Below, in pieces: positions 2,960-47,915 of a stretch of 47,915 nucleotides of DNA. The stretch comes from Escherichia phage vB_EcoS-BECP10: sequence record MW286156.1; one strand, given 5' to 3'. Below the pieces are notes generated by a model. That model was not told the DNA's origin, made no database searches, and saw only the letters and a program-made list of their open reading frames with translations. Each line of letters starts with the position of its first letter. Within the stretch, counting starts at the first letter, position 1. The position numbers and the translations under genes are program-made.

Positions 2960-2961
2960 TA

Positions 2962-3037
2962 AATAGCACTAATTGCTAAAGCCCTTCGGGGCTTTTCCTG
3001 TATATTCATCTCATCGAAACGAAATGGAGTTACTAAA
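2962..3037 (+). promoter_or_regulatory. Early promoter module 5: IR 2964-2978, hairpin AAGCCCTTCGGGGCTT, TGTATATT, CATCGAAACGAAA
   Basis: AAATAGCACTAATTGCTAAAG, hairpin, TATATT, conserved leader, RBS GGAG. Confidence 0.65.
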
Positions 3038-3259
3038 ATGATTAACTTTAAAGAAGCAGCAACAGAAATTATGGACTTCGAGCGAGAGCTAATATGGATG
3101 GGACATAATATGACCAATCTGGAAATTGCTAACCAGATTTGGCACTCTAAGATGAATCCACAGGATAGATTAGAAGTTATGAACATAGTGGGCGAAGTGA
3201 AAGGTAGTGCATTAATGAAGCTTCGCGCTTGTCATTCTTACATTGCCAAGCAACTTTAA
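3038..3259 (+). CDS. Hypothetical early protein (73 aa)
   Basis: ORF track; downstream of module 5. Confidence 0.45.
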   Translation: MINFKEAATEIMDFERELIWMGHNMTNLEIANQIWHSKMNPQDRLEVMNIVGEVKGSALMKLRACHSYIAKQL

Positions 3260-3464: not shown

Positions 3465-3505
3465 CGTTAGTTTGTATTTTCTTTGATTGATATATCAAAC
3501 TAGCA

Positions 3506-3586
3506 AATAGCACTTTTTGCTAAAACAAAATCGCAAGGATGCGGTATTATCTTTACATCGAAACGAAAAAGCGAAAGGTAAAAAAA
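3506..3586 (+). promoter_or_regulatory. Early promoter module 6: IR 3508-3522, hairpin CGCAAGGATGCG, TATTAT, CATCGAAACGAAA
   Basis: AATAGCACTTTTTGCTAAAAC, hairpin, TATTAT, leader, RBS AAAGG. Confidence 0.65.
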
Positions 3587-3838
3587 ATGAATACTTCAAA
3601 TAAAAACTTTATTACTTCATATAAAAAACTCCTTAAAGAACGCCTTGGTAAAAAAGACTTAGGGCATGACAAAATGGGATTTAAAGAAGGAAATCCTCAT
3701 CATGTTCTCGTGACTGGTTCAATATCCGGATCAACTAGCTACATTTACGACGAACATGGGAACGAGCGGCAGCTATACCTTAATGATGACTCTGGAACCT
3801 GCACCATTTGCGGAACATACGCATGGGAGGTTCAATAA
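3587..3838 (+). CDS. Early protein, divergent paralog family member 3 (83 aa)
   Basis: Internal start of track ORF 3539..3838; shares NKNFI...YIYDE.G motifs with the two 117-aa paralogs. Confidence 0.45.
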   Translation: MNTSNKNFITSYKKLLKERLGKKDLGHDKMGFKEGNPHHVLVTGSISGSTSYIYDEHGNERQLYLNDDSGTCTICGTYAWEVQ

Positions 3839-3844
3839 AAATTT

Positions 3845-3919
3845 AATAGCACAAATTGATAATGAATTATAAGCGGTCGTTGATATAATGGCCGCTCAGA
3901 AACAACACGGAGAGAAGTA
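3845..3919 (+). promoter_or_regulatory. Promoter module 7: degenerate IR TAGCAC-N5-TGATA (3847-3861), hairpin, TGATATAAT
   Basis: AATAGCACAAATTGATAATG, hairpin GCGGTCG..., extended -10-like TGATATAAT, RBS GGAGAG. Confidence 0.5.
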
Positions 3920-5503
3920 ATGTTTGATTTCAACGAAGATAAACTATCTGTCGAGCAGGTAATGTCTGTTGCAGCAGCCGAGAATTTACCACCTCTGCGA
4001 GTAGCAATTAATGCAAATGGCTATCGTCAGAGCGCATCATTCTGGAAAGCTCCTGTCGAGATTGATTCCACTGGAGACAAATATCCAGTCATCTCGCTCG
4101 GCAATGATTGTGATGTCGTTGGTAAGTTATCAAGCAATATCGCACGCTCTGTTCAGTTCCCGGAGTCATCTGCTTATATGCACTTCCTGGGATGTATTTC
4201 AGCCGCAATGCTTGGTCGATTCACAGTTGAGTATCATGGCACTCAGCAGCCTACTGCGCTGTACGTCGTAACCAGTCAGCCACCATCAACTGGTAAATCT
4301 GCTATTAACTCATTGTCAATCGCGCCAATGATTGCAGAAACTGAGCGACTGAATGAATTACGCAAGCGTGACCGTAAGAAGATTATGGCTAAGTTGTCAG
4401 CCCTGGCAAAAGAAATGAAGCAAGAGAAGTCACCATCTGAGATGGCTGGATTATTCGAAGAGAAAGAGGAGTTGGAAGAGAAGTTAGAAAAGCTGTGTGA
4501 CATTGTGTTCCCAGTATCCGACACCACTCCGGAAGGTCTTGCGCGAATTAACAGTCGTCAGGGTAACTTCTCCGTCATCTCGGATGAGGCAACAAGTGTG
4601 AACTCATTACTTGGCATGACATACGGTGATGGCTCGAAGAAAACGAACAGCGAGCTCGTTCTTAAGGCGTGGGATGCTGGTAACGTATCTATAGCGCGTG
4701 CGAATGCAGAGAATAACATGAGTTTTGTTGCCATGGGCTGTATTTCTGTAATTGCGCAGGATGAGACAATAGTTGCGATCATGAATGCCGGTGCTCGTGG
4801 TATTGGTGTCTCAGAACGTTTCTTGCTAGTACGTGAGAAATCACTCCTTGGTGAGCGTGTGTTCGTCGATGATGATGGCGAGTCAACATATGAACCAATT
4901 GACGGATCGTTGAAGGCTGATTACTTCCGTCTTGTTCATGAAATTATGAGTGAGCAAGATGTGAAGTTGACTATTAGTAACTCAGCAATGAAGCACCTTA
5001 ACCGTGCTCGACAGGAAATGGAGCCACACCTTGCAGATGGCGGTAAGTATTCACACACAATGCTGCGCGGCGCGTTAGGTAAAATGGATAAACAGGTAAT
5101 TCGCCTTGCTGCCGTTCTTCACACTATCCGTAACTGGTTTAACCCCAATGGCGGTAGTCCGCAGAAGTCCAGGGAGATTGAACTGGAAACCATGCAAGAG
5201 GCTTTGTTGATGTTTGGAGAACTTAGTAAGACTTACTTATCCTCAGCTAACGCAGCTGGTCATGCTGGCGATAACGCTGAGATGAACAAGTTAATTGATA
5301 TCCTTATCAAGCAAGGCAAGAACAGTAAAGGAGTTGTGGGTTTGCGTTCACTTTATGAAGCTGCGCGTAAGGTTCGACCTTTCGAGTCACAGGCTGGTGT
5401 TATGGCTAAAATTAAAGACCACTTACTCCCGATGCTTGATGATAAAAACTATACCTGCCTGATTGGTGACAAGGTATATATCAATCCACGGCTGCTGGGG
5501 TAA
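3920..5503 (+). CDS. P-loop ATPase of unknown function (527 aa); N- and C-terminal regions paralogous to 46081..46641
   Basis: ORF track; Walker A-like SQPPSTGKS and Walker B-like VISDEAT; N-terminus MFDFNEDKL...NLPPLRVAIN.NGYRQS and C-terminus shared with the 186-aa ORF. Confidence 0.6.
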   Translation: MFDFNEDKLSVEQVMSVAAAENLPPLRVAINANGYRQSASFWKAPVEIDSTGDKYPVISLGNDCDVVGKLSSNIARSVQFPESSAYMHFLGCISAAMLGRFTVEYHGTQQPTALYVVTSQPPSTGKSAINSLSIAPMIAETERLNELRKRDRKKIMAKLSALAKEMKQEKSPSEMAGLFEEKEELEEKLEKLCDIVFPVSDTTPEGLARINSRQGNFSVISDEATSVNSLLGMTYGDGSKKTNSELVLKAWDAGNVSIARANAENNMSFVAMGCISVIAQDETIVAIMNAGARGIGVSERFLLVREKSLLGERVFVDDDGESTYEPIDGSLKADYFRLVHEIMSEQDVKLTISNSAMKHLNRARQEMEPHLADGGKYSHTMLRGALGKMDKQVIRLAAVLHTIRNWFNPNGGSPQKSREIELETMQEALLMFGELSKTYLSSANAAGHAGDNAEMNKLIDILIKQGKNSKGVVGLRSLYEAARKVRPFESQAGVMAKIKDHLLPMLDDKNYTCLIGDKVYINPRLLG

Positions 5504-5507
5504 TTAA

Positions 5508-5843
5508 ATGTTCATCCTTGATGTGTTCAAGTTCTGCGAGAGCTACGAAAAGTTTAACAGGCAGCACCTGGCGGTATTCATTTACCGCCACAAAGAATGT
5601 GAAAGAATGGCTAAGGCAGCTGGAGTTAATGCGCGTTACTTTGCATCATCTGCGTCAAAGGAGTTTCTGGCAAGATGCATGACTGAAGGTTACATCGATG
5701 GAGTTAATGGCAGTTACTGGAGCAAAGGAAGCACGAAGCGACCATTCGGTTTTAGCTTTAGGTGCCTCGGAGGTGAGAGTGATAAGTACACCAATGAGAT
5801 GATGACCATAAAAGAAATGACAGACGACCAACTGTTCGCGTAA
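5508..5843 (+). CDS. Hypothetical protein (111 aa)
   Basis: ORF track; last gene of the plus-strand early arm. Confidence 0.45.
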   Translation: MFILDVFKFCESYEKFNRQHLAVFIYRHKECERMAKAAGVNARYFASSASKEFLARCMTEGYIDGVNGSYWSKGSTKRPFGFSFRCLGGESDKYTNEMMTIKEMTDDQLFA

Positions 5844-5845
5844 AA

Positions 5846-5872
5846 TAAAGGAGCCATTAGGCTCCTTTTTTG
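5846..5872. terminator. Bidirectional intrinsic terminator between convergent early and lysis transcription units
   Basis: Hairpin AAAGGAGCC-ATTA-GGCTCCTTT flanked by A and T runs. Confidence 0.6.
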
Positions 5873-6261
5873 TTTCCTGCGAATCTTAAAGCGAAGTAAG
5901 TTAGCAAACCTGAAACTAATCCAGCCAGAATACCCCAGACTAAAGAGTCAAAGCCAGAATTTTCAGTGCTATGAATTTCAATCTTTTCAGCTGTTATTGT
6001 GTTGGCTGATAGTCCTGTAGCGGCTGTCTTTTTCTGGCTTGATGAATCTACGTCTCTGTTAGTTGAGTTGCGCATGTCGCTTTCTGTTGAGCTAGATTTG
6101 TCTGTTTGATTTGACAATCCAACTCCTGTTTTCTGGTTGGACTCACCAACCTGCGCGGTTGCCTCTACGCCATCCTTTGCTGGTAAGAAATCAGAAATGG
6201 CTGACATAGCAGAGCACCCTGTCAGCAAGATAATTGCCAGAACTACAACTCCGAAACGCAT
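5857..6261 (-). CDS. Unimolecular spanin (outer-membrane lipoprotein with C-terminal TM helix, T1 gp11-like)
   Basis: Lipobox LLTGC after signal peptide; C-terminal hydrophobic helix LVWGILAGLVSGLLTYFAL; position 3' of the endolysin. Confidence 0.65.
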   Translation of the reverse strand: MRFGVVVLAIILLTGCSAMSAISDFLPAKDGVEATAQVGESNQKTGVGLSNQTDKSSSTESDMRNSTNRDVDSSSQKKTAATGLSANTITAEKIEIHSTENSGFDSLVWGILAGLVSGLLTYFALRFAGNKKGA

Positions 6262-6725
6262 AGCTTCACCTCCGCGTCACGTCTATTATCCAAACCCTTA
6301 GATACAACCTTTTTACCATTAATTGTAATCTTGTTAAATAGCCTTAAGGCATTGCAACCGCCATAGATATCTCCGGAATTAATCTTCCTCATTGCCGTTG
6401 ATTTGCGCATCGCATTAGTTCCCACGTTGAATGAGAAACTATACAAGGCAGCCCTGGTGCTAACTGGAACATCAACCTTTAACGCTTTATCAACAGCGGC
6501 ACGATGAATTGACAAGTGCTTCATAAGTAGTGCATCACACTCTCGCTGTGTGTAAACCTTGCCCAGAATAACGTCAGGACCAGTGATTCCTGCGCAAATA
6601 GTCCATACCCCAGCAACATCCTTGTAAGGCTTGTACTCAACGCCTTCATGCTCATTAAGGAACGGAACCGCCAGAGCCATGGCACCAGCCACAGCAGAAC
6701 CAATTACCTTATTTTTAATGCTCAT
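6243..6725 (-). CDS. SAR endolysin (T4-lysozyme-like muramidase with N-terminal signal-anchor-release domain)
   Basis: N-terminal weakly hydrophobic Gly/Ala-rich segment VIGSAVAGAMALAVPFL followed by an E-8aa-D-5aa-T catalytic triad (EHEG...D...T). Confidence 0.75.
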   Translation of the reverse strand: MSIKNKVIGSAVAGAMALAVPFLNEHEGVEYKPYKDVAGVWTICAGITGPDVILGKVYTQRECDALLMKHLSIHRAAVDKALKVDVPVSTRAALYSFSFNVGTNAMRKSTAMRKINSGDIYGGCNALRLFNKITINGKKVVSKGLDNRRDAEVKLCVSEL

Positions 6726-6940
6726 TATTTACTCCTGATTCTTATTGCCTCTCGAATATCCCCATCTTCAAGTGCTTTATGGAGCGCCTTACTGTCACGC
6801 CAGCGCAGCCATGCGCCAAAAATACCAAAGCATACGGCGATAACTAAGCCAATAATGCCGATGATTGTGTTGTCAGATAAACCGCCACCCATAGCTACTC
6901 CGCTACCGGACAAGGCGGCTGCGTCATAGAAATGCTTCAT
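6725..6940 (-). CDS. Holin, probably pinholin class (71 aa, two TM segments)
   Basis: Two hydrophobic segments, charged C-terminus, immediately upstream of the SAR endolysin; RBS AAAGAGG. Confidence 0.6.
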   Translation of the reverse strand: MKHFYDAAALSGSGVAMGGGLSDNTIIGIIGLVIAVCFGIFGAWLRWRDSKALHKALEDGDIREAIRIRSK

Positions 6941-7429: not shown

Positions 7430-7614
7430 TAGCGCTCTCCAAGTGCATCTAGGATTGCGTAGGCAATTTCACGAGCATTTTTAGCAGTAAGATTGATAGT
7501 GTCAACTTTTACATCTTCTTCGCTAGAGCCGTATGCCTGCGCAATCTTAAAGGTCTTACCAAAACCAACATCTTTAACTTCGATTTGTGCATCTGATTGT
7601 GTGAATTTAGCCAT
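7429..7614 (-). CDS. Hypothetical protein (61 aa)
   Basis: ORF track; first gene downstream of module 9; RBS AGAGGA. Confidence 0.5.
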   Translation of the reverse strand: MAKFTQSDAQIEVKDVGFGKTFKIAQAYGSSEEDVKVDTINLTAKNAREIAYAILDALGER

Positions 7615-7691
7615 CTTTGTATCCTCTCGTTTGTTTAGATGGGGTAACTATACCCCATCTTTTGATTTTCGTTTTAGCAATTCGTGCTATT
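7615..7691 (-). promoter_or_regulatory. Promoter module 9 (minus): IR 7675-7689, hairpin overlapping TATAGT, leader variant CATCTAAACAAACGAGAGG
   Basis: Minus-strand reading AAATAGCACGAATTGCTAAAAC then GGGGTATAGTTACCCC and a box-2 variant. Confidence 0.55.
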
Positions 7692-7953
7692 TAGACTTTA
7701 TTTGACTCCACTATATAGCACTCAAGGACAATCTTTTTATCATCAACATTCATCGTGCTGTGATTAAGCCAATCAACAACCGTTCTTAATTCCACTCATT
7801 CATGGTAAATCTCTTTTCCAAGTTCACAATACTGTTGAGATACCAATGGAGATGAAAGGCTTGCAACTAAAATCATCTCTGTAATCATTTTGATTCCTAT
7901 ATCTGTAGCTGACGCATCTCAAAAGCCTCGAAGGGCTTTAACAAAAAGTGATA

Positions 7954-9170: not shown

Positions 9171-9243
9171 CTGAATCGTCTCTCGTTTCGATGAACACAC
9201 TATACGCCATCCATGGCGATGTGTTTTAACAAAAAGTGCTATT
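9171..9243 (-). promoter_or_regulatory. Promoter module 10 (minus): IR variant 9227-9241, hairpin CGCCATGGATGGCG, TATAGT, TTCATCGAAACGAGAG
   Basis: Minus-strand AAATAGCACTTTTTGTTAAAAC then hairpin, TATAGT and leader box. Confidence 0.6.
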
Positions 9244-9496
9244 TTACTTCTTTTAGCCAGTAATCAAGAAACTCAGTTTCTAGAGCAGAAATTGCTGGTG
9301 AATACTCACTAGGCATCATCATATTGCAACCTGGCGAATAGTACATCAACTCAGCTTTACCAATCTCAATTTGCACCAGTACATCGAGGTAGTCCGGAGG
9401 AATCCACTCAGAGAAAGGAATCTTCCGATAAGGCTTCTCACCAAAAAACACAACCTGATACTTACTCTCATCAAAATCTAGACCAGGTAAATTCAT
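9239..9496 (-). CDS. Hypothetical protein (85 aa)
   Basis: ORF track; TAG stop lies inside the IR of module 10. Confidence 0.45.
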   Translation of the reverse strand: MNLPGLDFDESKYQVVFFGEKPYRKIPFSEWIPPDYLDVLVQIEIGKAELMYYSPGCNMMMPSEYSPAISALETEFLDYWLKEVK

Positions 9497-9777: not shown

Positions 9778-9854
9778 TATTCAGATCCAGTCTTAACTGC
9801 GTCATTTGCGAAAGACTGCGCAATCTCGAACATCTCTTTGTCTATAATTTTCAT

Positions 9855-9929
9855 CTCTTAACCCTCTCATTTGCTGATGTAATTAATATAATCCATCCTT
9901 GTATTTTAGTTTTAACAAAAAGTGCTATT
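9855..9929 (-). promoter_or_regulatory. Promoter module 11 (minus): IR variant 9913-9927 without a clear leader box
   Basis: Minus-strand AAATAGCACTTTTTGTTAAAAC followed by TATATTAAT; no CATCGAAACGA box. Confidence 0.45.
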
Positions 9930-10129
9930 TACTCATAAACAAGAAAACTTACATGCTTACCTTTCGCATCATTACACCCGTAGTACCCATCAAATTCATT
10001 ATGTAACTTCCATGCAAATCCGTCATCGCTAACTATTTCAACCTGGTCATTAATCGGGTCAAGTTTGAATTCATACTCATTGAGCAGGGTGAATGAGCCG
10101 TTCGTCATTACGCAAGTCGCAGTAATCAT
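9929..10129 (-). CDS. Hypothetical protein (66 aa)
   Basis: Internal Met of track ORF 9929..10147 giving ATGA coupling with the upstream gene. Confidence 0.4.
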   Translation of the reverse strand: MITATCVMTNGSFTLLNEYEFKLDPINDQVEIVSDDGFAWKLHNEFDGYYGCNDAKGKHVSFLVYE

Positions 10130-10344: not shown

Positions 10345-10538
10345 TATTCTGACACCTCATCAAATTTTTCGCCGAATGCGTTTTTAACAGTCTCTAAATC
10401 ATCTTTGTATGTTGGGCTAACTTCGAATGAGTAACCGTCTCCATCATCAAGAATATAACCCTCAGGGGTGATTGCTAATTCATATTCATAACCAGTTTTG
10501 CGTGACTTGTACAGCTTTTCAGTGTAGATAGTAGTCAT
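10344..10538 (-). CDS. Hypothetical protein (64 aa)
   Basis: Internal Met of track ORF 10344..10658; first ATG after module 12 with RBS AGAGAGAGA. Confidence 0.5.
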   Translation of the reverse strand: MTTIYTEKLYKSRKTGYEYELAITPEGYILDDGDGYSFEVSPTYKDDLETVKNAFGEKFDEVSE

Positions 10539-10614
10539 TTTGTTTCTCTCTCTTCGTTTCGATGAAGTAACTATATCGCATCCTTGCGAAATCTCTTTAG
10601 CAATTCGTGCTATT
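10539..10614 (-). promoter_or_regulatory. Promoter module 12 (minus): IR 10598-10612, hairpin TCGCAAGGATGCGA, TATAGT, TTCATCGAAACGAAGAG
   Basis: Minus-strand CAAATAGCACGAATTGCTAAAG, 22-nt spacer with hairpin, TATAGT, leader. Confidence 0.65.
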
Positions 10615-10986
10615 TGATAGATAATCTGTAATTGCCAACTTAAACATTTCAAACCCATAACAGATTGCCGCGTAACCTCCTGTTTCTGATACCTTTTCCA
10701 GGAACTCCTTTTGCTCCTTTGAAACCTTGCTATCTGATTTTATTGCTCGCTTAAGCTCTATTGCGGCAAAGCCATTTGGTCCAATCAGTAGAATATCTGA
10801 TACACCCTTAATTACTCCCTCCTGCTTGTCCTTCATTGCTGTGCCGATAGACTTGAGACCTTCATTCTTCACGTGAAAAGCAAATATCTCTGGATGGTTG
10901 TGGCGAACCCAAGCTATTGAATTTATTTGGTGAACAACCTCTTTAGCCTTGTCCGTGCTTGTTTTGTCGTGAAAAACCTTAACCAT
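10597..10986 (-). CDS. VRR-NUC domain nuclease (129 aa)
   Basis: PD-(D/E)XK-type motif DILLIGPNG...AAIELK; sits immediately 3' of the helicase gene. Confidence 0.6.
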   Translation of the reverse strand: MVKVFHDKTSTDKAKEVVHQINSIAWVRHNHPEIFAFHVKNEGLKSIGTAMKDKQEGVIKGVSDILLIGPNGFAAIELKRAIKSDSKVSKEQKEFLEKVSETGGYAAICYGFEMFKLAITDYLSNSTNC

Positions 10987-18419: not shown

Positions 18420-18491
18420 ACTTTTCCTCTCGTTGTCGATGAGGTAACTATACCTCACCGATTTAATGTTGTTTTAGCTATTCGTGCTGTT
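18420..18491 (-). promoter_or_regulatory. Promoter module 14 (minus): IR variant 18475-18489, hairpin over TATAGT, leader CCTCATCGACAACGAGAGG
   Basis: Minus-strand CAGCACGAATAGCTAAAAC then GAGGTATAGTTACCTC and leader box. Confidence 0.55.
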
Positions 18492-19442
18492 TTCGTACTT
18501 TGACATATAGTAAGACGGTACTTGCAACTCCATTGAATCCTCAATCATGTTGTATCCAGGCCATTTGTCATACTTCTTGCATTGCTTGTATGTTGCCAAT
18601 GCCTGCATATACTGGCGGCGGCCTAAAGCAATGTGCGCATCTGATAATGTGTAAAGCATAGGCAGGTATGGCGCCTTTTTCTCCTGAGCTAGCAGTTGTA
18701 CAATAACCTTTCGCTTTTCGTTGAACGCACGAACAAACAGGTCGCGCTGTAAAGCCATTTTAAGCAAGTAGCCATAATTGGCAGCAAGCCTACCAAATCC
18801 TTCAGGTGACGCGTCAGAGGTCGTCTTGTAATCTGTGATATAGACAACATCATCAACCACGTCAACATGGTCCAGCCTGACCTTAACTCCGCACTCATTA
18901 ATATCGCCGAAGATTGATAACTCTCGCTGAGCGGTTTTACTGTTCACTATCGCATTGTATGCAGGAATTCCGCACAGCACCTCTCGCATCGCATGTACTG
19001 TGTCAAAGTCTTTAGCTGATACAATCTCGCGACCGTTCGCTTTAACCTCGCTAGAGCGCTGAATATCCCACCATACGTTAAGTGATTCACCGCTCAGCGA
19101 CAGAATCTCCATTAATTCTGGATAATCCTTACCAGATGTTCCAGCAATACCCATCGACTTCAACCGAGTTGCCAAAGCAGTCTTGCTAGTAATCAGATCC
19201 TCAAACTCTTCTTGCGCTGGCTGGCGATAGTAAGTCGCATCGAATACAGAGTTTTCAAGAATAACCGTGTGGGCTAATGTACCGAACTTTAACGCCTTAT
19301 TGCTATCATCATGCTCTGCAAACTTATAAGCAGCGGGGCAGGTTGAGAAGATGTGAGCCAGACCAGAGCCAGACACATGGTCTGACTCCTTGTGGTAGGC
19401 CTCGTTGGTTAACTCGTCGCTAGTGTAAACCTTGAAGCTCAT
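18474..19442 (-). CDS. PD-(D/E)XK family exonuclease (recombination exonuclease, 322 aa)
   Basis: Motif DHVDVVDDVVYITDYKTT consistent with a D...(D/E)xK nuclease core; adjacent to annealing protein and SSB. Confidence 0.55.
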   Translation of the reverse strand: MSFKVYTSDELTNEAYHKESDHVSGSGLAHIFSTCPAAYKFAEHDDSNKALKFGTLAHTVILENSVFDATYYRQPAQEEFEDLITSKTALATRLKSMGIAGTSGKDYPELMEILSLSGESLNVWWDIQRSSEVKANGREIVSAKDFDTVHAMREVLCGIPAYNAIVNSKTAQRELSIFGDINECGVKVRLDHVDVVDDVVYITDYKTTSDASPEGFGRLAANYGYLLKMALQRDLFVRAFNEKRKVIVQLLAQEKKAPYLPMLYTLSDAHIALGRRQYMQALATYKQCKKYDKWPGYNMIEDSMELQVPSYYMSKYENSTNS

Positions 19443-20649: not shown

Positions 20650-21003
20650 GTATATCTGTGTAAAACTCACCTAAATACGGTTCGCTACCTTCTAAACCGC
20701 ACCAGCACTGGCTGTAACTCTTGTAACCAATGTATCCACCACAATTGCACCCTATCTATATCTATATGCATCCCCTCCTTAACAGGAAGTCAAACATAGT
20801 ATTTTAGAAAAACACACCAACATAACCATAGAGAGTAGTTACAATATATACAAACAAATATAGTAATAATAATAATTACTCTAAACCCTTATTATATAAG
20901 GATTCTATAGTGTAACTAATGCGTATCTTCGCGTAAAAAGCGTATACAATTTTCCGCGTATGAGATTGTATACATCGAGTTACATCGGTTACGCGTATAT
21001 CAA
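20650..21003. promoter_or_regulatory. AT-rich ORF-free control region A at the minus/plus divergence point; partly homologous to region B
   Basis: No ORF of 60 aa or more; shares TAATAATAATAAT, TTATATAAGGAT, TAGTGTA, GCGTATA.AATT, ACATCGG, ACGCGTATAT blocks with 47490-47640. Confidence 0.5.
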
Positions 21004-21088
21004 ATAGCACGATTTGCTAAAGACTCCAGCAGAAGCCTTTGCTATAGTTACTCCATCGAAACGAAACATACTTACTAAGGAATACAAA
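21004..21088 (+). promoter_or_regulatory. Promoter module 8: IR 21006-21020, TGCTATAGT, CATCGAAACGAAA
   Basis: AAATAGCACGATTTGCTAAAG, about 23-nt spacer, extended -10-like TGCTATAGT, leader, RBS AAGGA. Confidence 0.65.
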
Positions 21089-28120: not shown

Positions 28121-28184
28121 CTCTTTTTTAAGTTTTTTAATTGTAAACCTTCCTTGGTATTTCTGTTTAGCAATTAGTGCTATT
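28121..28184 (-). promoter_or_regulatory. Promoter module 16 (minus) inside the tail operon: IR 28168-28182
   Basis: Minus-strand AAATAGCACTAATTGCTAAAC; no CATCGAAACGA leader. Confidence 0.5.
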
Positions 28185-28534
28185 TACTGCATAGATGTGA
28201 AAACCTCAGTAAATTGCATTGATACGGTCTGAACTTCCTTGGTATTTGGCGTGACGCTAATGCTATCTTGAGCTACAACAAACAGCTTAAGCTCACCCTG
28301 CGGAGTTGTCCATGCGAAAGGTGTAATGATGTGCGCGAAGCAGAATTCAAGAACATCTCTCCAGTCATTGTTGGTGTATGTCATGTTGTACGTTCGCTTG
28401 TTGGCCCTGTATCCTCCAGTACCTCTTTGCTCGTAGCCATTACCAAAGCTGACAACCCTAACGTTATTCGCGTTAGTAAAGTTTGCTGATCCACCTTGAA
28501 TTTGGGTACACCATGTAAAAGTATCTAATGCCAT
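28184..28534 (-). CDS. Minor tail protein (lambda M-like, 116 aa)
   Basis: Size and position between tape measure and L. Confidence 0.55.
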   Translation of the reverse strand: MALDTFTWCTQIQGGSANFTNANNVRVVSFGNGYEQRGTGGYRANKRTYNMTYTNNDWRDVLEFCFAHIITPFAWTTPQGELKLFVVAQDSISVTPNTKEVQTVSMQFTEVFTSMQ

Positions 28535-44898: not shown

Positions 44899-44975
44899 TT
44901 AATCTTTCCTCGTCTCATTTCGATAAAGTAATGGTAACGCATCCTTGCGATGGATGTTTAGCAATTTGTGCTATT
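44899..44975 (-). promoter_or_regulatory. Promoter module 17 (minus): IR 44959-44973, hairpin CGCAAGGATGCG, leader variant TTTATCGAAATGAGACGAGG
   Basis: Minus-strand CAAATAGCACAAATTGCTAAAC then hairpin and box-2 variant. Confidence 0.6.
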
Positions 44976-45270
44976 TGTTGCTCCAGCTATCAAGATAATG
45001 TTTAGGTCCGTTGCGATACTTGTCTATAAGTTCCTGGACATGTGCACCCCTTTGATCATGGAATTCTATGGCCTTCTGAAGCGATACAATGGCCTCATTG
45101 ATGTCGGTAGGGTAATCCTTATGTCGTGTTCGAATGCCGCTGCACAGTACCTTTTTGATGGCATGCTGTAGTGCCGGGTCCGTTACGCCAAATGCTGCGA
45201 TGACGCGATATACATCAACCGTAGTCTTGGTGCCGTCCAGGCCAATAATCTCTTTTTCGTACTTACTCAT
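44971..45270 (-). CDS. Hypothetical early protein (99 aa)
   Basis: ORF track; RBS GAGGATTGAGAT. Confidence 0.5.
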   Translation of the reverse strand: MSKYEKEIIGLDGTKTTVDVYRVIAAFGVTDPALQHAIKKVLCSGIRTRHKDYPTDINEAIVSLQKAIEFHDQRGAHVQELIDKYRNGPKHYLDSWSNK

Positions 45271-46023: not shown

Positions 46024-46098
46024 GGTTATTTCCTCTTTGTTGTTGATAGGGTAATCATAGCTGACTACCCAATTTATTGTTTAGCAATTTGTGCTATA
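46024..46098 (-). promoter_or_regulatory. Promoter module 18 (minus): IR 46082-46096, hairpin over TATGAT, leader CCCTATCAACAACAAAGAGG
   Basis: Minus-strand AATATAGCACAAATTGCTAAAC then GGGTA...TACCC hairpin and box-2 variant. Confidence 0.6.
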
Positions 46099-46641
46099 TT
46101 CACCATTCAGGAGAGCTTTCGCTTTCCGGTAGAACTGTATGGCCTTCTCCACCTCATCGGCATCATAGCCATGGATTGTTGTTTGCGGTGGCACGTAGTT
46201 TGAGCGTGGCGCGTCGGATCGGCACTGACTGCACCAGTTTTGCACGTCGTCCTTATCCATCTCAACCAGGGCCGGATGAACATAAATCTTATCGCCAATG
46301 AGGCAAACAATTCCCGCCTCCTGTAGTTCTGGGATGATGTTATTTGTCAGGTCATGCATAATCCCTTCGCGCCCGACGAATGGCTGGACCTTTCGGATTG
46401 CCTCGTATAGAGATCGAATGCCAACCACTCCATTCCAGCCCTGGCGTCTAATCCTGCTCACTACGACGCCGTATTTGTAGCTCAACTTGACGCACAGCAT
46501 CTCTTCGGCGCTGGGCCAGAAATTGAATGATTGGCGGTATCCATTAGTATTGATTGCCACACGAAGTGGCGGCAGGTTATCTTGCCTGGCGACTTCCATC
46601 ACCTGGTCATCAGTTAACTTATCTTCGTCGAAATCAAACAT
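46081..46641 (-). CDS. Short paralog (186 aa) of the N- and C-terminal regions of the 527-aa ATPase, lacking the ATPase core
   Basis: MFDFDEDKLTDDQVMEVARQDNLPPLRVAINTNGYRQS and GVVGIRSLYEAIRKVQPF...CLIGDKIYVHPAL align with both ends of 3920..5503. Confidence 0.55.
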   Translation of the reverse strand: MFDFDEDKLTDDQVMEVARQDNLPPLRVAINTNGYRQSFNFWPSAEEMLCVKLSYKYGVVVSRIRRQGWNGVVGIRSLYEAIRKVQPFVGREGIMHDLTNNIIPELQEAGIVCLIGDKIYVHPALVEMDKDDVQNWCSQCRSDAPRSNYVPPQTTIHGYDADEVEKAIQFYRKAKALLNGEYSTNC

Positions 46642-47183
46642 TAGTTAAACTCCTTGATCATCTCTTGATACATGCGGATAGCCTTAACTGCGCCAGTCAG
46701 CTCATCACCTTCAAAATCCAGTACGTTAGGTGATAACTTAAGCAAGCGAGATTTGAACTTCTCAATAACAGCCCGCTCCTTTTCTTCTTTCTCTCTTTGT
46801 TTTGCTTTTGGCTCCTTAACCCCCTCGGTGAGATGGATTAGCAGGTATTTATCAGCACCATCGCCATCATACTGGCGGGGCGTGGTATCTTCACCATCCG
46901 CATCAATCCAGATGAATTGATAACGGGCGATATACTTAGCCTCACGCAACTCTCTCATTCGTGACAATGTATTATGAATGTATGAGTTCTTTAACTCACT
47001 CAACTTCCGCTCTCCAAGGTTGATAATATCCCCGGTTTTATCATCAGTCTCCATTTCCGGGTAATCATGACCTCTAATTTGTCGGTAAATATCTCGAACT
47101 GGAACCTTGAACTCCTTATCTTCTGACTGGAGTGCCTTTTTAGCCATGAATCGAATTACTTCACCTAAGGTCGTTTTGCTCAT
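46641..47183 (-). CDS. Hypothetical early protein (180 aa)
   Basis: ORF track; RBS GAGAGGAA; first gene of the minus-strand early arm. Confidence 0.5.
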   Translation of the reverse strand: MSKTTLGEVIRFMAKKALQSEDKEFKVPVRDIYRQIRGHDYPEMETDDKTGDIINLGERKLSELKNSYIHNTLSRMRELREAKYIARYQFIWIDADGEDTTPRQYDGDGADKYLLIHLTEGVKEPKAKQREKEEKERAVIEKFKSRLLKLSPNVLDFEGDELTGAVKAIRMYQEMIKEFN

Positions 47184-47250
47184 GATGATTCCTCTCGTTG
47201 ATTGTTGTTTGTTGCCTCGTTTCGATGAAATGACTATAGCAAAGATTTAC
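47184..47250 (-). promoter_or_regulatory. Promoter module 19 (minus): TGCTATAGT plus leader TTTCATCGAAACGAGG but no upstream IR
   Basis: Extended -10-like TGCTATAGT and conserved leader; the AATAGCAC...GCTAAAG element is absent. Confidence 0.5.
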
Positions 47251-47816
47251 GTGTCTATAAATGTATTTTTTTGTTTATTTTAAAATTGATACGCTTTTTT
47301 CCCTGCATGCCGCATCGTTGCTGGGTGTGTACAGGCGTCTACGTGCGTCTACATATAGATGAGGGGGTTCTGGCTATATCCCCTTATATTTTCCTACAAG
47401 GTAGTACAATTCCTACAGTGTAGGAATAAAAATAGAAATTTAAGCAAACCAACCTATATAGTAGCGTACAGATGATACGCTATATATACATAATACTATA
47501 TATAATAATAATAATAGTCTAAGTACTTTATATATAAGGATATTTTAGTGTATATGGATTGTATCAAGGCGTATAAATTGTAAATGTGGATACGGTCGAC
47601 AATCGGTAGACATCGGACTACGCGTATATAAAAGAAGTCTCTCCGCGAGCGATAAAACCAACCAACTATTTGATCCAAACCTCCTTTCATTCAATCCATC
47701 CATCCATCATTGCCAAACTGGCAACAATCAATAAACCTGTTGCACTCGATGAAATATTGCTTTATGTGTAATAGTCATGCTAATCATCGCAATGCCTGCA
47801 ACAATCCATAAATCTG
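47251..47816. promoter_or_regulatory. ORF-free control region B between the two divergent early arms; palindromes, short tandem repeats, candidate origin or pac region
   Basis: Palindrome TTCCTACAGTGTAGGAA, direct GTCTAC repeats, (CCAT)4, DnaA-box-like TGTGGATAC, AT-rich block homologous to region A. Confidence 0.45.
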
Positions 47817-47915
47817 ACGAATAGCACTTTTTGCTAAAGACAAATGGGGATGGCAAGGCTATAGTAAACTCATCAACAACGAGGAGATAGATATGAAGGT
47901 AAAAATAACAGCACT
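47817..47915. repeat. Second copy of the terminal direct repeat (duplicates IR module 1 and the first codons of the 77..271 gene)
   Basis: Identical to 1-99. Confidence 0.9.

Follow-up and report, generated by a model that had tools for sequence, protein, structure and literature searches.

A motor-less paralogue of the T1 gp09-type DUF3987 helicase in an early operon of a T1-like coliphage

We analysed a stretch of DNA of 47,915 nucleotides (nt) from Escherichia phage vB_EcoS-BECP10, a T1-like coliphage of the Drexlerviridae (sequence record MW286156.1; hereafter the window), and found that it encodes two forms of one replication protein: a 527-amino-acid (aa) replicative-type helicase homologous to phage T1 gp09 (DUF3987, MCM-like AAA+; positions 3920-5503, plus strand), and a 186-aa motor-less paralogue (46081-46641, minus strand). 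The short gene very probably arose through inverted duplication of a DUF3987 helicase gene of the T1 gp09 type in the coliphage branch of the Drexlerviridae, with the copy losing codons 49-454 and gaining a tail of 59 residues. Bases 1-99 of the window are identical to 47817-47915 (an assembly overlap, from a circularly closed or permuted genome of about 47,816 bp); features near its two ends are therefore truly adjacent, and the helicase and the short gene are neighbours across the junction.

The identity of the longer protein was clear from several independent comparisons. Its residues 81-430 match PF13148 (DUF3987) at 144.9 bits, well over the gathering cutoff of 27 bits (E 4.9e-42), the protein matches PHROG 2373 ("DNA helicase") and is 56% identical to T1 gp09 (ST9), and it has an MCM-type AAA+ fold. 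Among 33 diverse helicases, P121, P122, G125, K126 and S127 of the Walker A motif (PPSTGKS, aa 121-127; 4280-4300, plus strand) are invariant, as are S221 and E223 of the Walker B motif (VISDEAT, aa 219-225; 4574-4594, plus strand), with I220 and A224 nearly so. The DUF3987 match and these motifs bear out the original prediction of a P-loop ATPase. This assignment agrees with Kazlauskas et al. 2016 (PMC4889955), and the helicase itself is already known. DUF3987 helicases generally carry a C-terminal winged helix and are widespread in phages and mobile elements (PMC4889955), and a distant relative, a PriCT-DUF3987 protein, has been shown experimentally to be a 5'-3' helicase; it is only for this relative that ATP-dependent unwinding of DNA and formation of hexamers have been demonstrated (PMC11724360). 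Sequence comparison of the helicase family with the PDB gave only an insignificant match (E 0.38). The gp09-type helicase is probably central to replication in T1-like phages.

Both ends of the helicase recur in the short protein. BLASTP aligned residues 1-48 of one with residues 1-48 of the other (32/48 identical, 67%; E 9e-20), and also aligned helicase residues 464-526 with short-protein residues 66-126 (31/63 identical, 49%; E 8e-19). Profile-profile comparison with hhalign, using a 29-member alignment of the short family and a 33-member alignment of helicases, extended the C-terminal match to residues 57-127 of the short protein and 455-527 of the helicase (probability 99.2%, E 8e-20). 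The homologous parts thus correspond to 3920-4063 (plus strand) and 46498-46641 (minus strand) for the N-terminal segment, and to 5282-5500 (plus strand) and 46261-46473 (minus strand) for a C-terminal helix followed by a winged helix. Helicase residues 49-454 (406 aa), which include Walker A and Walker B, have no equivalent in the short protein. The paralogy of the ends and the missing central segment had both been proposed from the sequence, and both were upheld. At the DNA level similarity is limited to roughly the first 115 nt (72% over 3915-4029 versus 46646-46532).

Structural models agree with this division. The helices of the N-terminal segment have identical boundaries in both proteins (11-21, 25-33, 36-41). 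The AlphaFold2 model of the short protein has a predicted local distance difference test (pLDDT) score of 82.8 overall, with residues 10-140 confident (85-96), and its C-terminal module (helices 55-67, 75-82 and 94-108; strands 72-74, 112-115 and 118-121) parallels that of the helicase (helices 451-468, 475-482 and 494-508; strands 472-474, 512-515 and 518-521; pLDDT about 90 or higher). The shared module is a winged helix, with H1-beta1-H2-H3-beta2-beta3 topology and structural matches to solved winged helices.

The short protein does not consist of copied helicase ends alone. According to the profile-profile comparison, its 59 C-terminal residues (aa 128-186; 46084-46260, minus strand) have no helicase counterpart; they consist of a variable linker and a conserved helix (aa 159-181, nt 46099-46167; residues 161-178 in the model). 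This tail helix is the best-conserved part of the short family, with a mean pairwise identity of 72.9%, compared with 65% for the N-terminal segment plus winged helix and 40% for aa 128-158. We rejected an origin of the tail by read-through past the helicase stop codon, suggested by a tblastn alignment that ran beyond the stop: comparisons with the downstream frames were non-significant (best P ~0.04-0.05, for a 10-residue match with three frames tried). Across 29 diverse family members 20 columns are invariant and 15 nearly so, and the family comprises more than 100 distinct full-length clusters at 90% identity. The protein matches PHROG 7327, of "unknown function", over residues 1-181 (profile positions 1-179 of 179; E 1.8e-99), and no Pfam family matches it. 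Since it lacks the AAA+ core, we regard it, on its sequence, as a derivative of the DUF3987 family and not a member. Neither the short family nor the family of its upstream neighbour DUF7174 matched solved structures (in sequence searches), NCBIfam or PADLOC.

The original prediction left open whether an ATPase core had been inserted into a small two-part domain or deleted from the short copy. Our results strongly favour deletion from a duplicated helicase, and core insertion is contradicted by the trees, by the search for the modules and by published work (PMC4889955). In neighbour-joining trees of the N-terminal segment, the C-terminal segment and the two concatenated (118 short proteins and 115 helicases), the short family formed a single clade with no helicase tips inside, lying closest to the co-resident helicase subtype. 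Its identity to helicase ends falls as helicases diverge from the window's type, from 61 through 50, 43 and 37 to 24% for the N-terminal segment and from 42 through 38, 33 and 27 to 22% for the C-terminal one. A profile search of 1.84 billion representative proteins returned 47 matches, all of them members of the short family, its fragments or T1-like helicases, and no other architecture; fragments of 36-125 aa were numerous among the matches. The single clade, the exhaustive search and the general presence of a winged helix in DUF3987 helicases together indicate that the short gene arose once, by duplication and deletion of the motor. That a small two-part protein was ancestral and the helicase was made by inserting a core into it is suggested by the bare architecture only, and we consider it highly improbable: many phages and mobile elements encode DUF3987 helicases that end in a winged helix (PMC4889955), whereas the short family is a narrow clade nearest to one helicase subtype and its architecture was confined to T1-like phages in the exhaustive search.

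The duplication is old, as judged from saturated synonymous sites between the helicases of phages that share the short gene. For these helicases the synonymous divergence (dS) is ~2 and the ratio of nonsynonymous to synonymous divergence (dN/dS) 0.01-0.05, with proteins 89-96% identical; over the same span the short proteins are 40-97% identical. Gene conversion or concerted evolution between the two genes was considered and found unsupported as a general process, given that DNA similarity of 72% covers 115 nt only and that in CJ19 the N-terminal segment of the short protein is 33% identical to that of its own helicase.

We then examined how the pair is distributed. Helicases of the gp09 type occur in 900 phage records, of which 119 encode a protein at least 90% identical to that of the window; the short gene occurs in 108 phage records, and 101 of these are Escherichia phages. 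The pair could be read in 15 genome contexts, and in all 15 the helicase is 89-96% identical to the window's. These contexts come from at least three classified lineages and include phages of Rogunavirus, Guelphvirus and Nouzillyvirus as well as the vB_EcoS-12210I group. T1 lacks the short gene, and no DUF7174 gene could be detected in it. At all 11 loci where the frame was read through, the helicase is a full-length ORF (open reading frame) of 527-530 aa, and only the Jk06 record is broken. In that record (NC_007291; L001, 5718-7309) frame changes split the gene into annotated ORFs JK_52 to JK_55, probably owing to a sequencing error in this 2005 entry.

The short gene is intact in 17 of 26 distinct loci (ORF of 174-190 aa) and disrupted or deleted in the remaining nine. 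Independent nonsense mutations were found at different codons in seven lineages, most loci having a single early stop with the rest of the frame conserved: TAA at codon 37 and TAG at codon 138 in OzMSK/Msk (L002, 1099-1638), TAA at codon 37 in CEB_EC3a (L003, 893-1411), TAG at codon 141 in DTL (L010, 8671-9192), TGA at codon 141 in the vB_EcoS-12210I type (L013, 10001-10528; phages of E. coli DSM 12242, 43 records), TGA at codon 34 plus a frameshift in an IMG/VR viral contig (L014, 10001-10526), and TAG at codon 147 and TAA at codon 157 in two metagenome contigs (L018, 708-1244; L019, 415-951). Large deletions have left stubs at two metagenome loci (L032, 1539-1691; L033, 572-640), one of which encodes 51 aa that join residues 1-24 to the tail helix. 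In several GenBank records the broken gene is annotated as two small ORFs. Recoding or suppression at the premature stops was rejected as an explanation, with TAA, TAG and TGA mixed at unrelated codons and one frameshift.

Rates of evolution of the short gene depend on the distance compared. Between close relatives its dN/dS lies at 0.43-0.77, whereas most of the distant comparisons with estimable dS gave 0.08-0.22 (one pair 0.37); in distant pairs that involve the window its nonsynonymous divergence (dN) is 0.41-0.50, against 0.055-0.077 for the helicase, so that it evolves about 10 times faster. On these sequence comparisons the gene is constrained where it is kept, yet it is clearly dispensable and often lost. 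Its adjacency to DUF7174, its roughly tenfold faster evolution and its disruption or deletion at 9/26 loci mark it as an accessory gene.

The 180-aa DUF7174 gene (PF23796, PHROG 4841; 46641-47183, minus strand) lies directly upstream. It adjoins the short gene in all 25 distinct loci with upstream sequence, including two where only a stub of the short gene is left. DUF7174 proteins are very divergent (32-99% identity), and one GenBank record labels the protein "HEPN domain-containing protein". In the window the start of the short gene overlaps the DUF7174 stop codon (TAATG), and a strong ribosome-binding site (AAGGAG) stands 7 nt upstream.

What the shared ends might bind was approached through conservation and charge. 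Within the helicase family conservation is lowest at the two ends (46-48%, against 68% for the core), as would be expected of lineage-specific interaction surfaces. The short protein has a net charge of -5. Its winged helix is close to neutral (family mean +0.9), that of the helicase is mildly basic at +3 (family mean +3.3), and both families have an acidic "recognition" helix (net -3 in the window's short protein, -1 in its helicase). These predicted charges tend to speak against a classical sequence-specific DNA binder. Because the helicase ends are poorly conserved and do not look like a specific DNA reader, we hold modulation of the helicase through a shared ligand to be the most likely function of the short protein, although we give this mechanism somewhat less than an even chance. 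The short protein would mimic the non-catalytic ends of the helicase and so modulate its loading, assembly or partner recruitment. It would be made early, from the second gene of the leftward early operon, which follows DUF7174 and is coupled to it translationally, and would take up the same ligand or ligands as the helicase ends. This ligand would more likely be another protein, or the winged helix of the helicase itself, than any specific DNA site, and its occupation would alter loading, assembly or partner recruitment of the helicase. The conserved tail helix could provide a second contact, with the short protein serving as an adaptor. It would thus be an accessory modulator and not an essential replication factor, and a role tied to replication initiation, as originally suggested, is plausible.

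That the gene is functional is supported by its 20 invariant positions, the low dN/dS of 0.08-0.22 in the majority of distant comparisons, the strong ribosome-binding site with TAATG coupling and the high-confidence fold, and its accessory status by its absence from T1 and the nine disrupted or deleted loci. Several observations weigh against modulation through a shared ligand. Foldseek searches of BFVD gave no rigid-body superposition of the short protein on helicase models. The sources searched yielded no interaction, expression or phenotype data for either protein. The 33% identity between the N-terminal segments in CJ19 weakens a strict same-ligand model, and the dN/dS of 0.43-0.77 among close relatives, together with frequent nonsense alleles, would also fit relaxed selection.

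We weighed other functions against modulation of the helicase. The short protein could act in immunity, either as a decoy that mimics the exposed helicase ends and diverts a host sensor, or as a trigger that is recognised by defences and so repeatedly inactivated. Its place in an early operon among small, fast-evolving genes, a rate some ten times that of the helicase (dN 0.41-0.50 versus 0.055-0.077), a patchy distribution confined to coliphages, and independent TAA, TAG and TGA mutations in seven lineages plus two deletion stubs all fit this idea; phages are well documented to evade defences through mutations in non-essential genes, the T1-like SECphi27 being one example (bioRxiv 10.1101/2022.08.27.505566). 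Searches of PADLOC and NCBIfam, however, yielded no defence or counter-defence match for the short protein, DUF7174 or the helicase; no link to immunity is reported, and we found no escape study that names the short gene or the DUF3987 helicase in T1-like phages. Disrupted alleles, moreover, are not limited to isolates but turn up in contigs from uncultured metagenomes too. We judge an immune role unlikely. A more elaborate scheme, which we regard as rather unlikely, would make DUF7174 and the short protein an early control module that governs the loading of one allele of the MCM-like helicase, or shields it from host immunity, docking through the copied ends and signalling through the tail helix, with the nonsense alleles recording conflict with host defences. 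If true, it would show a virus that naturally employs a separately encoded, motor-less paralogue to regulate or protect its replicative helicase.

A positive initiator or loader, which would bind an origin in the adjacent AT-rich region and recruit the helicase by winged-helix contacts in the manner of ORC/Cdc6 and MCM, would suit the ORC/Cdc6-like fold; we think it improbable, as the protein and its recognition helix are acidic, the intergenic region contains no iteron array, and the gene is missing from T1 and from the examined phages with more divergent helicases of the same family (108 records, versus 900 with the helicase). Viable isolates with early stops at codons 34-37 rule out an essential initiator. 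To a non-functional relic, the decaying remnant of a duplicated helicase gene, we assign a similarly small chance. The nine disrupted or deleted loci among 26 and the dN/dS of 0.43-0.77 among close relatives are what decay would produce, but an intact ORF of 174-190 aa persists in 17 distinct lineages despite saturated helicase dS (~2) where both genes are comparable, and dead DNA is rarely kept that long in phage genomes. The 20 invariant and 15 near-invariant columns, the gene-specific tail helix as the best-conserved part, the more than 100 full-length clusters and the retention of the ribosome-binding site and translational coupling also run counter to decay.

The genomic setting of the duplication differs from that originally proposed. 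The two genes are indeed transcribed divergently, from either side of a 709-bp AT-rich intergenic region (47184-47892; no strand) that separates divergent early operons and is probably the "control region B" of the original prediction. The placement had been described as mirror-wise, at similar distances from this region; instead, the short gene starts 543 nt from it with one gene between, and the helicase 3843 nt away, beyond some twelve small ORFs. Spacing between the two starts is 5.1 kb in the window and 2.5-4.2 kb in 13 relatives. An ancient inverted duplication around a candidate origin, as first envisaged, finds no support in our results: only one gene was duplicated, the geometry is asymmetric and variable, there is no iteron array, promoter matches are at chance level, and the equivalent place in T1 contains a pac-defined end. 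A wider inverted duplication of the arms was also sought and dismissed, self-BLASTN and all-versus-all BLASTP having returned only this pair and an unrelated PHROG 2684 trio.

The intergenic region has a GC content of 36.1%, versus 43.7% genome-wide. Repeats in the interval examined (47100-47915) are short and in two copies only, with no iteron array, and promoter-like sites in the region are at chance level (6 found, 6.0 expected). GC skew was discarded as evidence for an origin, since it simply tracks the direction of transcription. In T1 the equivalent region, between ST1 and ST77, contains the physical end of the genome, as defined by pac, and the point where the 2.8-kb terminal repeat starts (ends of NC_005833), and the sequence records of several relatives begin in the equivalent intergenic region; 47184-47892 may therefore hold a pac site, either instead of an origin or in addition to one. 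A DNA polymerase gene is missing from T1-like phages, in which no origin has been identified (PMC11447400).

We compared both proteins with known systems. The 527-aa protein resembles superfamily 6 (SF6) MCM-like helicases of the DUF3987 (PF13148) family, such as T1 gp09 and the characterised helicase AgaPH, in its Pfam match, Walker A and B motifs, AAA+ fold and winged helix; the short protein keeps none of their core. Where PriCT-DUF3987 proteins have PriCT, the window's helicase has a lineage-specific N-terminal segment of 48 aa. No primase is fused to it or encoded next to it; in T1-like phages the gene for the DnaG-type primase lies elsewhere.

Two further systems bear a likeness to the short protein. 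Cnr of P4 is likewise a small accessory protein that targets a mobile element's replicative helicase, via the helicase's C-terminal winged-helix domain, and limits replication; heterodimerisation of Cnr with the alpha helicase through winged helices was reportedly proposed by Yeo et al. in 2002. The cnr gene controls P4 plasmid copy number (PMC8628076). P4 alpha is an SF3 helicase and not MCM-like, and no sequence relationship to the P4 proteins is claimed; the short protein, unlike Cnr, also carries the N-terminal segment of the helicase and is its demonstrable paralogue. The second case is OBPC of herpes simplex virus 1 (HSV-1), again a second viral protein that consists of the non-motor binding part of an initiator helicase. 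OBPC (UL8.5), a motor-less C-terminal form of UL9, can reportedly compete with the full-length enzyme (said to be the work of Baradaran et al. in 1994 and 1996). It is made in frame from the UL9 gene itself, whereas the short protein is a paralogue that has its own gene and has diverged; UL9 belongs to SF2 and has a domain that binds DNA sequence-specifically, whereas the module shared here looks protein-binding. The lid plus winged-helix modules of ORC/Cdc6 are also among the nearest known systems. We class the short family with truncated regulatory or decoy paralogues of viral replication proteins; it is already present in PHROGs as a family of unknown function. We found neither its kinship with the helicase, nor the DUF7174 cassette, nor the recurrent inactivation described in the searchable literature.

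T1-like phages abound; they serve in phage therapy and cause trouble in industry. Their replication is poorly understood, with no known origin or initiator. A paralogue that consists of the ends only would mark the interaction surfaces of the helicase and could serve as a probe for partners, as a dominant-negative form or as bait in pull-downs, and the natural nonsense alleles offer isogenic-like material for functional study. The short gene also provides a clean, datable case of a new accessory gene formed by duplication, deletion of a motor and addition of a new C-terminal element.

Around the helicase, gene order is conserved downstream. A 111-aa "YdbL"-like gene (PHROG 2794; 5508-5843, plus strand) stands 3' of it in all 17 loci with downstream sequence, followed by the convergent unimolecular spanin gene. 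The latter belongs to a lysis cassette on the minus strand, convergent with the helicase operon, of unimolecular spanin (5857-6261), endolysin (6243-6725) and holin (6725-6940), comparable to T1 genes 11-13; the spanin has a lipobox (LLTGCSA) and a C-terminal membrane helix. Just upstream of the helicase is the trio of PHROG 2684 paralogues, of unknown function (1246-1599, 2391-2768 and 3539-3838, plus strand). Beyond this trio and the helicase pair the genome contains no paralogous genes. Identity between the first two is 73.5% for the proteins and 72% for the DNA over 358 nt; the third is ~31-33% identical.

The two arms differ in their relationships to other phages. DNA of the helicase region is 88-92% identical to Rogue1, C119, Jk06, AHP42 and others, and DNA of the short-gene region is 99% identical to Jk06 and AHP42. 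Between the window and an IMG/VR contig (L004), dS is 0.04 for the short gene and 0.89 for the helicase, which indicates that the arms differ in recombination history, with a mosaic boundary somewhere between them.

A 99-aa ORF in the leftward arm (44971-45270, minus strand) matches the C-terminal third only of PHROG 2452 (235 aa) and of PHROG 17613 "ATPase" (246 aa); no full-length relative is encoded in this genome, and the ORF may be another domain-only early gene. Among the small early genes of the rightward arm lies a direct repeat of ~89 nt (838-926 and 2961-3046; 86.5% identity), which may be a duplicated promoter or terminator region. Repeats of 50-95 nt (72-81% identical, in both orientations) are dispersed at 1999-2090, 3500-3596, 7608-7693, 9183-9244, 9852-9933, 10530-10620, 18425-18492, 20998-21065, 28138-28188 and 44915-44977, and may be intergenic repeats of the phage TLS type, which stand upstream of start codons (PMC11447400).

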